DNA from: Shigella phage vB_SboM_Phaginator
Reading direction: 5' to 3' (one strand)
DNA length: 64,000 nucleotides
Sequence record: OL615012
Below the pieces are notes generated by a model. That model was not told where the DNA came from, made no database searches, and was given only the letters and a program-made list of their open reading frames with translations. The translations under genes and the position numbers were made by a program. Of this stretch, positions 5,164-63,465 are shown in pieces. Position 1 is the stretch's first letter. Every line of letters begins with the position of its first letter.

Positions 5164-5571
5164 TTATTCCTTAAAGTGTGCTTTCAACATCTGATACAAG
5201 GACCATGCCTGTTCATTATTTTCAATAGTAACTTTCATTAAAGGAAAATCAGATGTATCAGTTACTGGTGCAGGTTCTTCAACTTCATCAACGATTGCAT
5301 TTGGGTCTTCAACTTCATCAAAAAACTGTGCATCATCTGCTAAAAGACAAATATAATTTTCACTTAAGATGTCTTCATATAAAAATAGTGTTCCACTAGA
5401 TGTCATAATTTTAGTTGGACTTTGAAGAGAATCAACATCCAAGATTTTAAAAGGATGCATACCTAAGCGCTGTGCATAAGTTCCATTCTCAATGTGGTCT
5501 TTAATAAAAGCTTCTTGGGCTTGTTTATTTTTGAATTGATACCATTTATTAACTTCAAATTTAATAGCCAT
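5164..5571 (-). CDS. hypothetical acidic protein (135 aa), at the T4 goF position
   Basis: ORF-track ORF; position relative to 39 and motB matches goF but sequence not recalled. Confidence 0.55.
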
Positions 5572-57381: not shown

Positions 57382-57569
57382 TATTCTTCTACATGTTGTT
57401 TACGACCTTTCTTATCAATAAAGGTATATTCAACGAATGTTCCAATGTAGTCTTTATCTACATCATGTGGACTATTAATTGGACATTTAGTACGGCAAAT
57501 GCGTTCCCATTGACGAATAATTTCCACTTTGTTTTTAGGATCAAACGGATGTGGGTAATGTACTTTCAT
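57357..57569 (-). CDS. hypothetical protein (70 aa)
   Basis: ORF-track ORF. Confidence 0.5.
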   Translation of the reverse strand: MKVHYPHPFDPKNKVEIIRQWERICRTKCPINSPHDVDKDYIGTFVEYTFIDKKGRKQHVEEYCLKVTWL

Positions 57570-58020
57570 AATCCACCACTATTAAATCAATATCAGGAGT
57601 AAACATGTCGATTAATTTAGAAACTTTATCCCAATCGCCGCCAGCAATACCACAACCTATGCGTGGAATGTAAATTATCGGTTTAAACAAAAGGGTTTCT
57701 GCCTGTAGATTTAATTCTATCATGCAGTTTACTAAAGCACCATAATCAAGATTAGGACCTGGTTCGTATTGCGTATACAAGTTATAACATATGCCAAAAC
57801 CATTAGGTTTATGTTTAAAAACAATAGACATATCACCGAGTTTTTCACGCGAACCATATTCAGTTGTGGTCTTATCTATTTCTAAAATTTTGGGATAGGC
57901 TCTTGCTAATTGACCAGCTACACCACTGCCCATTGTATGAAAACAATTGCACCCGTGCGCAATAATATTACCTTGAAGAAATAGGGCGACAATATCGCCC
58001 TTGATATATTTTACAATCAT
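57541..58020 (-). CDS. macro-domain protein (predicted ADP-ribose binding/hydrolase)
   Basis: 159-aa ORF; IKGDI...GNIIAHGCNCFHTMGSGVAGQLA and IGCGIAGGDW resemble macro-domain signatures. Confidence 0.6.
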   Translation of the reverse strand: MIVKYIKGDIVALFLQGNIIAHGCNCFHTMGSGVAGQLARAYPKILEIDKTTTEYGSREKLGDMSIVFKHKPNGFGICYNLYTQYEPGPNLDYGALVNCMIELNLQAETLLFKPIIYIPRIGCGIAGGDWDKVSKLIDMFTPDIDLIVVDYESTLPTSV

Positions 58021-58364
58021 CTAGTACTCAATCCTCGATTATAAGAATCTACCAAACGGTCAACCATTGAATGACAAGCGGCTTTATCTTTCTCCTCCGC
58101 AACTGAACATTCTAAGGTATTCCACTTTTTAGCATATCGTTTTAATAATGTATCGTTTTTGTATCTGCTTGATTTATCTCTTTCTCCGTCTTTATATGCA
58201 TATATTAATTTCTGTGCAAATTCAGCTTGGCATGCTTTATTTTTCCCACAATAATCTGCCGCAGTGCGGTTTACATATTCTCTAATTTCAGTATATGATG
58301 TATCTGCTGACGCAGAAGCAGAAAATGAAATTAATCCTATACATAAAACCAAAATTTTAGTCAT
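58017..58364 (-). CDS. secreted protein (115 aa)
   Basis: Signal peptide MTKILVLCIGLISFSASASA; four Cys. Confidence 0.6.
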   Translation of the reverse strand: MTKILVLCIGLISFSASASADTSYTEIREYVNRTAADYCGKNKACQAEFAQKLIYAYKDGERDKSSRYKNDTLLKRYAKKWNTLECSVAEEKDKAACHSMVDRLVDSYNRGLSTR

Positions 58365-58902
58365 TTACTATTTCCAAAAGTTTATTATTTTTAAGGTAAT
58401 TAGCCTTTTCTAGGACTTCAGAAGCATATTTAGAACCAGCTTTAACATTCCATCCCGAATTATAAGAGGATATTGCTTTTCTTATATCGCCCTTATGTAT
58501 ATTTAACCAATAAGAAAGTTCAATGTACGCCCAGGAAGCTGAATTGGATCGTTTATTCAACATTCTTTTTATTTCAGCATCGGTCATATTATAACCAAGT
58601 TCCTTAACTCTTGCTCGCATAGTAGGCAAATAATTTTGGAACATTCCGTAGGCGTGATGCTTTGGTTTAGATTTTAAATTAACTCCGCCAGAGCTTTCTT
58701 GCCATAAAATAGCAGCCATTATATGACCTAATCCGCTCTTGTGGATATTTTTGTGTGTTTTATATTTTCCATCCTTAGAAAATTGTTCCCCGAATTGATA
58801 CGCGTAACGCATGTTATCGAGTTGGACATTACTGAAAGTATGCTCGGAGCTATGTGCCATCATTGAAATGGCCAATAGACCAGCGAGTAGTGCTTTTCTC
58901 AT
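58357..58902 (-). CDS. secreted lytic transglycosylase-like protein (SLT domain)
   Basis: Signal peptide MRKALLAGLLAISMMA; motifs WQESSGG, YGMFQ, SSYNSGW fit the SLT E-S/GLMQ/AYNxG pattern. Confidence 0.6.
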   Translation of the reverse strand: MRKALLAGLLAISMMAHSSEHTFSNVQLDNMRYAYQFGEQFSKDGKYKTHKNIHKSGLGHIMAAILWQESSGGVNLKSKPKHHAYGMFQNYLPTMRARVKELGYNMTDAEIKRMLNKRSNSASWAYIELSYWLNIHKGDIRKAISSYNSGWNVKAGSKYASEVLEKANYLKNNKLLEIVND

Positions 58903-58909
58903 GCTTACC

Positions 58910-59371
58910 TCATTGAGTTTTAATTACTGCTTTAGAAGCCTTTCCTGGTAAACGACGACTGTTGATAATTGCCATCCTACATTGAAGTGACGGGTCTTTG
59001 AACTTCTCATTAGGCTTACAAACTGTAAATCCAAGCCAAAGATTTCCATCTGTGATTTCTAAACGTCCAGGACGATATTCAACCCCATCAATAAAATCCT
59101 CGTCAATGTCAGGACGCGGAGGCATACTCAGGAATTCATTAACTTCTAAAACATGGTCTTTTATTTTATGGAATAATTCAAAAACATATGTCTCATCAAT
59201 CTCCCGTTGAATTGCACGATCAAGAAGATGTTGAGAATATTTTAGATGAAACGATGAGACCCCTGCTGCTTTTGATGCCTCACGAATCTCATTGTTAATT
59301 TGACGAAACTCCGACTCAAAGTGACGACGAAGCTTATTTCGACGGATAAAAACTTCTGTGTTGATAGTCAT
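58910..59371 (-). CDS. regB: RegB endoribonuclease
   Basis: 153-aa ORF MTINTEVFIRRNKLRRHFE...; T4 RegB length and sequence as recalled. Confidence 0.9.
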   Translation of the reverse strand: MTINTEVFIRRNKLRRHFESEFRQINNEIREASKAAGVSSFHLKYSQHLLDRAIQREIDETYVFELFHKIKDHVLEVNEFLSMPPRPDIDEDFIDGVEYRPGRLEITDGNLWLGFTVCKPNEKFKDPSLQCRMAIINSRRLPGKASKAVIKTQ

Positions 59372-59399
59372 GTTATTCTCCTCTTAACTGATAGAAAAA

Positions 59400-59429
59400 T
59401 TATACCACAGTCAAGAGGAAAAGTAAACA
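59400..59429 (-). promoter_or_regulatory. T4-type early promoter
   Basis: Minus strand GTTTAC-18 nt-TGGTATAAT, then GAGGAG and the regB ATG. Confidence 0.7.
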
Positions 59430-59430
59430 A

Positions 59431-59709
59431 TTATTCTTTAAATCTAATCAATTTATTCATAGACTTTGAAACTTCTGCACGAACCTCATGTAGGTTTTTA
59501 AGCTGTTCAAGACGCTGCTCATAGTAAGCAATTTCATCTTCTTCGAGACAGTCCTGCGAATCTTCTTTAAGATAACGTGCATAGTCCTGGAAAGCTTTAC
59601 GGACTACTTCCTGGAAGTCATCAAGACTTTGAATTTTCTTAGGAGCAACAGATACACGACGAGGGGCAGTATAATACTCATAACCAAACCCTGCGCTTAA
59701 TTGAGCCAT
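59431..59709 (-). CDS. hypothetical protein (~92 aa)
   Basis: ORF-track ORF trimmed to [13 protein letters not shown]..., abutting the upstream ORF's stop. Confidence 0.5.
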
Positions 59710-60011
59710 TAATATTTTTCCTCTGGTTGGAACACAGCACGACAAGCCCACATACTGGCTTCTTTGAGTTTCGTTTTAGCAATAGTTAACTGATCGAGGC
59801 TTTCAGCATAATTCTTCGCGAATTCACAGTCTTCACAATTATCTAGTGCTTCCCAGAATTCATCATATAAAGCGTCAAAGATAAGTCCTAAACGAACTTC
59901 AGCGTCTTTGATAGCATTCACTTTACCGATTTTCTCTTCAGTATGTGGCTTATAACCCTTAATATCTTCAATCATATTTGACTTCCTCACCAGTACATAA
60001 ATCATATTCAA
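59709..60011 (-). CDS. hypothetical protein (88-100 aa), 2nd ORF after regB
   Basis: ORF-track ORF; start ambiguous (MNMIYV... or MIEDIKG...). Confidence 0.5.
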
Positions 60012-60189
60012 CTAAACGAATAGGTTCATGAATGCCATATCCTTGAACAGAAATTTCTGTCGTAGGATAAATTCCATCAATATCACCCATATTCCATGCT
60101 TCATTAAATTGTTGTTCGCCTGAATTACTAAACCATTCGGCGAAAGCATTTAGCACATCTTTAGAACCTTCAATAATTATCTTTGCCAT
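59968..60189 (-). CDS. hypothetical acidic protein (73 aa)
   Basis: ORF-track ORF; ATGA-coupled to the GrcA-like gene. Confidence 0.5.
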   Translation of the reverse strand: MAKIIIEGSKDVLNAFAEWFSNSGEQQFNEAWNMGDIDGIYPTTEISVQGYGIHEPIRLVEYDLCTGEEVKYD

Positions 60190-60551
60190 TACAAACTCTC
60201 AGTAAAGGTACGAGCGATAACGTCGCGCTGCTGTTCCGGAGTCAGAGAGTTAAAGCGAACTGCATAACCGGATACACGGATGGTCAGCTGCGGATATTTT
60301 TCCGGATGCTTAACTGCATCTTCCAGAGTTTCGCGACGCAGAACGTTAACGTTCAGGTGTTGACCACCTTCAATTTTAACTGTAGGCTGTGGTTCAATTT
60401 CAATTTCACGGGCATGCAAACCGTAGAAAATTTCTGGGTCTACAAAAGAGTCCTCTTTAAAGGTTTTAGAGACAATAATTCGTGCTTGAATACCATCTTC
60501 AAAATAAATAGTACCTTTGTGTGTGCCTTCAAGAATTTGATATGCTTTCAT
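60189..60551 (-). CDS. GrcA/YfiD-like autonomous glycyl radical cofactor
   Basis: 120-aa ORF; C-terminus ...[60 protein letters not shown] carries the RVSGY glycyl-radical motif and matches E. coli GrcA as recalled. Confidence 0.7.
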
Positions 60552-61593: not shown

Positions 61594-62172
61594 TTAGGAA
61601 TTACGGGCTGCATTAGCAACGGCGTAAGCGTACTGGACATTAGCGTCTTTAAACGTACCTTTAGAGGTATCTATTTCTGCCTTAAAGCCGCCTTTAGCCA
61701 TAACATCGGCAAATTCTTTACGGAAAGCCATTGCATCAAGACCTTTCCATGATGATTTATGCTTGGCAAATTCAAGACCAGCGTAGTTGACAGCCTTAGC
61801 TAATTTATTATCAATAACCCATTTACCGGCTTTAGGCACAAACTTCGGGCCTTTTTGTTTAGAGAACAGTTTTAAATTCCAGCGACGAAGGTCACTGTCG
61901 GCTTTAACAAAAGCTGCGTCTAAGTTACTAGCAACAACATCTTCAATATGAGCAAATTTAAGTCCGTCAACTTCAATATTTAGATCGTTACGCCAGCGAA
62001 GTCCTTCCCAAGCGAAGGCTTTAAAGTCGGAAGCCTTTGTAGCTAAGTACCGTTCAATAGGAGCTGTTTTAGGGTCAAAGCCGTTTCCCGATCGGTAGGT
62101 CCACTCATCTTTATTAATGCCTTTGGCCTTTACTATAGAAGCTTCGGCAATAAATTCTTGATAGGTTTTCAT
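61594..62172 (-). CDS. ipIII: internal protein, IPIII-like (capsid targeting sequence)
   Basis: 192-aa basic ORF beginning MKTYQEFIAEA, the T4 internal-protein targeting sequence; T4 IPIII ~194 aa. Confidence 0.75.
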   Translation of the reverse strand: MKTYQEFIAEASIVKAKGINKDEWTYRSGNGFDPKTAPIERYLATKASDFKAFAWEGLRWRNDLNIEVDGLKFAHIEDVVASNLDAAFVKADSDLRRWNLKLFSKQKGPKFVPKAGKWVIDNKLAKAVNYAGLEFAKHKSSWKGLDAMAFRKEFADVMAKGGFKAEIDTSKGTFKDANVQYAYAVANAARNS

Positions 62173-62233: not shown

Positions 62234-62494
62234 TTAAGCTTTACCGCCAGAAATAATTCCGAAGTTGTTAAAATCATATCCAATATCGTCAACATCTACT
62301 TTAGGACTTGCTACAGCATAAGCAATTTCACTACGTTTTGCACAGGTGTTGATTTCTTTACCATCGCCACCTAAGAAAGAATACCCATTACGTTTTAATG
62401 AGCCAAAGTCTTCCGCATCACCAATGAAAGCTTTAACTTTAAATTTAGAACCTTTGGCATCTGCTTCAACGATAAATTCTTGATACATTTTCAT
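62234..62494 (-). CDS. internal protein, IPII-like (capsid targeting sequence)
   Basis: 86-aa ORF beginning MKMYQEFIVEA. Confidence 0.65.
   Translation of the reverse strand: MKMYQEFIVEADAKGSKFKVKAFIGDAEDFGSLKRNGYSFLGGDGKEINTCAKRSEIAYAVASPKVDVDDIGYDFNNFGIISGGKA

Positions 62495-62662: not shown

Positions 62663-63465
<803 letters not shown>

Follow-up and report, generated by a model that had tools for sequence, protein, structure and literature searches.

Two small proteins of phage T4 have been described as sponges for bacterial immune signals. The first is Vs.4, whose gene is equated in the literature with acb2 (PMC10097602, PMC12657218). T4 Vs.4 binds 3'3'-cGAMP with a Kd of ~30 nM (PMC10097602), the published values spanning ~30 to 84 nM over two studies (PMC10097602, PMC10312549). 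Its hexamer holds three molecules of 3'3'-cGAMP, which it sequesters and does not cleave, and keeps the signal from the CapV effector, and T4 is sensitized to CBASS by a vs.4 knockout (PMC10097602). The pocket residues were defined in the same study, in which the role of the hexamer interface was established by mutagenesis. Various cyclic dinucleotides are bound by T4 Acb2, but cA3 and cAAG are not, even after a D61R substitution, because D61 replaces an Arg and the pocket helix is shaped differently (PMC10312549). The distant Acb2 of Pseudomonas phage PaMx33 (p26; PDB 8H2J and 8IXZ), which shares 24% identity with the T4-type protein, also binds cyclic trinucleotides via R67 and T74, whereas cA3 is not bound by the T4-type protein, in which the corresponding residues are D61 and T68; Y11 and K26 of PaMx33 Acb2 are essential for dinucleotide binding (PMC10312549). 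The trinucleotide-binding subgroup is of the PaMx33/JBD67 type and is recognized by an Arg and a Thr at the pocket. T4 Vs.4 additionally binds the decoy 2',3'-c-di-AMP and thereby triggers the Panoptes defense, and T4 escapers of Panoptes carry mutations in acb2/vs.4 (PMC12657218).

The second sponge is T4 Vs.3, which was identified as TadIV-1 and as the only T4 protein that inhibits type IV Thoeris (Chen et al. 2026, PMC13243611). TadIV-1 has two helices and forms a dimer; N7-cADPR is bound, without being degraded, by its flexible N-terminal loop (Kd of ~216 nM for T4 Vs.3), and deletion of vs.3 sensitizes T4 (PMC13243611). Mutagenesis of the T4 protein showed that R17, R18, and K24 are required, and only the long homologues (~90 aa) are active, the short ones (~70 aa) being inactive (PMC13243611). 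The crystal structure PDB 9WIW is that of apo TadIV-1 from phage UPEC07; the binding pocket comes from modeling and mutagenesis only, as no ligand density was obtained (PMC13243611).

We analyzed a 64,000-nucleotide stretch of Shigella phage vB_SboM_Phaginator (OL615012), referred to here as the window. This DNA belongs to a T4-like phage (Tequatrovirus), and between 57.3 and 64 kb its genes are all carried on the minus strand. An initial annotation, made from the letters alone, had placed three small ORFs at 59431-60189 by regB and proposed that they occupy the slot in which T4 encodes Vs.4/Acb2. The placement and the proposal both held. The interval is filled exactly by three minus-strand ORFs, with regB on one side and vs.6 on the other, and the same gene layout is annotated in T4 (NC_000866, MT984581, and HM137666), AR1, and Kha5h. 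The features of the region are as follows.

58910-59371, minus strand: regB endoribonuclease, a landmark gene outside the sponge pair (Pfam REGB_T4, E 8e-69)
59399-59427, minus strand: sigma-70-type promoter-like site (TTTACT, 17-nt spacer, TG-extended TATAAT)
59431-59709, minus strand: ORF1, assigned as vs.3/tadIV-1 (ATG at 59709, 92 aa)
59709-59975, minus strand: ORF2, assigned as vs.4/acb2 (ATG at 59975, 88 aa)
59968-60189, minus strand: ORF3, assigned as vs.5 in its intact form (ATG at 60189, 73 aa)
60189-60551, minus strand: vs.6, GrcA-like autonomous glycyl-radical cofactor (Pfam Gly_radical, E 3e-18)

These data indicate, with a probability that we put at about 0.95, that the locus is the vs.5-vs.4-vs.3 run of a T4-like phage and that it would encode two adjacent immune-signal sponges. 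Sequence identities, residue conservation, and gene layout were computed here; ligand binding, oligomeric state, and anti-defense phenotypes are taken from published experiments on proteins that are identical or 98% identical. Two of the three genes are members of characterized sponge families, so that known biology is re-identified rather than discovered, and our additions are only the TadIV-1 assignment for ORF1 and a note on a frameshift in the T4 reference vs.5.

Although the three ORFs lie past regB in plus-strand coordinates, they are upstream of it in the direction of transcription. Inspection of the gene junctions revealed stop/start overlaps throughout: TAATG between vs.6 and vs.5, ATGATTGA (an overlap of 8 nt) between vs.5 and vs.4, and TAATG between vs.4 and vs.3. 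A GAGG-type ribosome-binding site precedes each of vs.5, vs.4, and vs.3. The overlaps of these three genes therefore argue for one translationally coupled run with vs.6, which is its upstream member and is annotated as vs.6/GrcA in T4 and AR1; Vs.5 would accordingly be cotranslated with Vs.4 and Vs.3. The 1.7 kb around the locus is 99.4% identical to phage Kha5h, and a megablast search with this stretch matched 817 phage records, 490 of which hold at least 80% of it. Conservation on this scale argues that the ORFs are real genes and not chance reading frames.

The mechanical ORF list also left open longer readings of two of these genes, in which ORF2 would start at a TTG (60011) and encode 100 aa and ORF1 would start at a GTG (59751) and encode 106 aa, giving products unlike those of T4 and of possibly altered function. 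The range of 88 to 100 aa that the initial annotation had given for ORF2 was accurate, as it corresponds to its ATG and TTG starts. We consider it very improbable that the extended forms are the ones made. In both ORFs the ATG start is preceded, at a distance of 7 to 9 nt, by a GAGG ribosome-binding site and falls within a stop/start overlap typical of translational coupling, whereas the TTG and GTG extensions lie entirely within the upstream genes. Moreover, the ATG starts are those annotated in T4, T4T, MT984581, and Kha5h, and for vs.3 also in AR1 (the longer vs.4 annotated in AR1 is the exception among the related records), and the Vs.4 that was crystallized and found to be active is the 88-aa form. 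The 106-aa reading of ORF1 is best regarded as an artifact of choosing the longest ORF.

The promoter-like site at 59399-59427 lies in the 59-bp gap between vs.3 and regB. It had the top scan score of the region, with 10 of 12 positions matching and an extended -10 element, and T4 and AR1 carry it unchanged. The site is probably the regB early promoter, a function that we infer from these features. The expression and timing of the sponge genes in Phaginator are predicted by analogy, from their synteny with T4.

Analysis of the product of ORF2 revealed that it is identical to T4 Vs.4 at 88 of 88 residues and to PDB 7UQ2 ("Vs.4") over 100% of positions (E 2e-57). It also matched Pfam family PF24729 (Acb2_Tad1_hairpin) at 71.4 bits (cut-off, 27; E 7e-20) and PHROG 717 (E 2e-32), the family by which Jenson et al. 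defined Vs.4 homologues (PMC10097602). Matches to the PaMx33 Acb2 structures (PDB 8H2J and 8IXZ) were weak (phmmer E 0.03). The second ORF had been proposed as the best Acb2 candidate and described as acidic and helical, and each part of this description was borne out: one of the three proteins does align with Acb2, this protein is ORF2, its pI is 4.66, and it is identical to a solved helical structure (7UQ2). That the Acb2 orthologue might instead be ORF1 or ORF3 has next to no likelihood, since ORF2 is the only one of the three that matches Acb2_Tad1_hairpin and PDB 7UQ2, 8H2J, and 8IXZ, while ORF1 matches 9WIW/TadIV-1 and ORF3 matches neither Acb2 nor TadIV-1.

The residues on which the published function depends are present in ORF2. 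All of the cyclic-dinucleotide pocket residues are kept, namely, Y8 and F82, which stack on the ligand, and H11, K23, and R79, which make polar contacts, as are the hexamer-interface residues L29, F33, A66, A73, and A77. ORF2 resembles T4 Vs.4/Acb2 (PDB 7UQ2; Jenson et al. 2023; Huiting et al. 2023) not only in its protein but also in its setting: it too is flanked by vs.5 and vs.3, lies upstream of regB, and shares the start/stop overlaps. The gene differs from that of the T4 reference only by eight synonymous nucleotide differences, each in a different codon; there are no nonsynonymous differences, which is consistent with purifying selection. PaMx33 Acb2 belongs to the same Pfam family, and its dinucleotide clamp residues align with those of ORF2 (in the HMMER alignment, Y8 falls on Y11 and K23 on K26). 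Unlike that protein, ORF2 has D61 and T68 at the cyclic-trinucleotide pocket and lacks the Arg (R67 in PaMx33) that marks the trinucleotide-binding subgroup. Because D61 replaces the Arg of the trinucleotide-binding homologues, the ORF2 product, by analogy with that of T4, should bind dinucleotides and should not bind cyclic trinucleotides. Judged by its sequence, then, ORF2 is the known hexameric cyclic-dinucleotide sponge Acb2, which blocks CBASS.

If it acts as its T4 counterpart does, Acb2 of Phaginator would assemble into an interlocked hexamer whose three pockets are each built by two protomers, and 3'3'-cGAMP and other cyclic dinucleotides would be clamped there between Y8 and F82 and contacted by H11, K23, and R79. 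Withholding the CBASS signal from its effector in this manner would prevent the infected cell from being killed before the phage has completed its cycle. The same property should expose the phage to the Panoptes decoy system.

ORF1 was 98% identical to T4 Vs.3, from which it differs only by N38K and T64E. It also matched PDB 9WIW (E 5e-38), with 75% identity to the crystallized UPEC07 protein, whose N-terminal loop, unlike that of ORF1, is longer by an insertion of 9 residues. ORF1 corresponds to the long form of the family: it is 92 aa in length, its N-terminal 24 residues are fully aligned to T4, and R17, R18, and K24 (T4 numbering) are all kept. It thus shares with T4 TadIV-1 the N-terminal loop and the residues within it that were shown to be required, and both of its substitutions fall outside the mutated binding residues. 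K38 and E64 are likewise found in Vs.3 of AR1, and other phages, e.g., PP01, encode a protein 100% identical to ORF1. The initial annotation had not recognized that ORF1 is itself a published sponge. We identify ORF1, on the strength of these alignments, as Vs.3, the TadIV-1 sponge for the type IV Thoeris signal N7-cADPR. A Pfam match of ORF1 to Tex_N reached 18.6 bits (cut-off, 32) and was set aside as below threshold.

As a two-helix dimer, Vs.3/TadIV-1 would bind N7-cADPR through its flexible N-terminal loop, with R17, R18, and K24 taking part, and so would keep the caspase-like effector of type IV Thoeris from being activated. Phaginator would therefore carry the standard T4 sponge pair, with Acb2 directed at cGAMP-type CBASS and TadIV-1 at type IV Thoeris. 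The presence of this pair would make it predictable which host defenses the phage evades and which decoy system (Panoptes) is able to detect it.

In databases, homologues of Vs.3 and Vs.4 are still called "hypothetical protein" or, wrongly, "endoribonuclease." The latter name is given to homologues of Vs.3/TadIV-1 and sometimes of Vs.4 (MN895434, OR757453, and OQ466432, among others) and appears as the molecule name of 9WIW as well. The label appears to be annotation spill-over from the neighboring regB and not functional evidence.

ORF3 differs from the Vs.5 of the T4 reference, a point that had escaped the initial annotation: it is an intact 73-aa form, whereas the reference product has 58 aa. 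Alignment of the window with NC_000866 revealed that the latter is without one base after vs.5 codon 17 (window position 60140), and its annotated 58-aa Vs.5 (at 5382-5558 of the NC_000866 locus, L002) is therefore out of frame past residue 17. The two proteins come from the same locus and have the first 17 codons in common. Among the matches listed, the short form of vs.5 was found only in the 1986 sequence X04567 and in two reference records derived from it, NC_000866 and AF158101, while the extra base is present in the other 10 T4-type genome records (T4T, KJ477684-6, MT984581, OL964735, OZ209023, OZ209057, OZ035787, and others). The base is also present in the window and in AR1, which, like every re-sequenced T4 isolate among the matches listed, encode the intact protein of 73 aa. 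In the two T4 records that we checked, MT984581 and T4T, a 73-aa Vs.5 is annotated that is 99% identical to that of the window. AR1 and Kha5h likewise annotate an intact 73-aa Vs.5, and in all four records its gene shares 8 nt with the start of vs.4. The comparison identifies ORF3 as the true Vs.5 and the 58-aa T4 reference product as a frameshift artifact of the 1986 sequence. Anti-defense screens of T4 small proteins that take their sequences from the reference annotation would include an incorrect Vs.5.

The intact Vs.5 is an acidic protein (pI 4.1, with 14 acidic and 4 basic residues), is restricted to T4-like phages, and belongs to PHROG 1986, a family of unknown function. It is full length in 986 of the 987 matching phage records, which are from T4-like phages, at identities down to ~43%, and it contains an invariant WFSxSGEQ motif. 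Searches of Pfam, NCBIfam, and the PDB gave no sequence match, a fold comparison gave no match to a known fold, and no sequence or fold likeness was seen to the sponges Acb2, Tad1, Tad2, Acb4, Sequestin, Lockin, and TadIV-1. A match to SurE (E 0.008) was below threshold and was dismissed. A word-index search recovered only five close relatives. Exhaustive HMMER searching of 1.84 billion representatives gave six matches, comprising five small phage homologues and one metagenomic protein of 895 aa (P0007). Seven tandem FG-GAP/VCBS-like repeats of the latter each match the region of Vs.5 residues 13-62 (summed E 2e-12), the repeat AWFENNGSQSFTE aligning against EWFSNSGEQQFNE of the Vs.5 motif. 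This was the sole similarity outside phages. As it arises only via the motif WFENNGSQSF summed over repeats, it is probably a motif or compositional coincidence, and we do not regard the protein as a Vs.5 homologue.

The position of vs.5 raises the possibility that its product is a third anti-defense protein, either a sponge or a protein inhibitor, which would make the run a three-gene counter-defense cassette. Indeed, the gene is translationally coupled between vs.6 and both sponges; the protein is small and acidic; it is conserved in all 987 of the T4-like phage records noted above; and its motif is invariant while it matches no known fold. In distant genera vs.5 adjoins acb2 or stays near it: Enterobacter phage CIP9 keeps the order vs.5-acb2-short vs.3-regB, whereas in Klebsiella phage Roth80 vs.6 separates a vs.5 fusion gene from acb2, which comes after vs.6, and the annotation shows no vs.3 ahead of regB. 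The Roth80 protein (1501-1992 of locus L006) has 163 aa; its N-terminal domain is Vs.5-like, and its C-terminal domain of 85 aa (PHROG 17468) had no match in Pfam or the PDB. A fusion of Vs.5 to Acb2 in the longer homologues (~160 aa), if found, would imply a sponge role for Vs.5; the C-terminal 85 aa of the Roth80 protein, however, are not Acb2, and the Vs.5 domain is joined there to an unknown domain and not to a sponge. Vs.5 also is without similarity to the known sponge families. The early regions of T4 are rich in small genes with unrelated roles, and position is therefore weak evidence for the role of Vs.5. When Chen et al. assayed Vs.3 to Vs.8 singly, only Vs.3 inhibited type IV Thoeris (PMC13243611). 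On balance, a third anti-defense gene in the run is unlikely, and the position, size, and charge of Vs.5 make an anti-defense role for it plausible, though tentative at best. Slightly more doubtful still is the fuller proposal, in which Vs.5 would be a third counter-defense factor representing a new fold family, its true sequence having been masked by the frameshift in the T4 reference.

Several neighboring genes were also noted. The slot between vs.8 and e (lysozyme) contains three minus-strand ORFs, at 61594-62172, 62234-62494, and 62663-62959, all of which begin with MK(T/M)Y(Q/S)EF, the third only if it is read from an internal ATG. A leader of this kind is typical of T4 internal head proteins, and two of the three ORFs match PHROG internal-protein families. 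Judged from the ORFs alone, there is no leftover ORF of at least 60 aa in this slot for denV. The content of the slot is unlike that of T4 (denV, ipII, and ipIII) and of Kha5h (ipIV and denV).

On the other side of the sponge genes, the vs.1 orthologue (58357-58902, minus strand) encodes a protein of 181 aa that has a signal-like sequence at its N terminus and weakly matches the SLT lytic-transglycosylase domain of Pfam (E 1e-5). The early region that contains both sponges also includes the tk.4 orthologue (57541-58020, minus strand), two genes past regB; its product is a macro-domain protein of 159 aa (Pfam Macro, E 3e-8; PHROG 335, "phosphatase"). Because macro domains process ADP-ribose derivatives, a link between the tk.4 protein and ADP-ribose-based defense signaling is conceivable.
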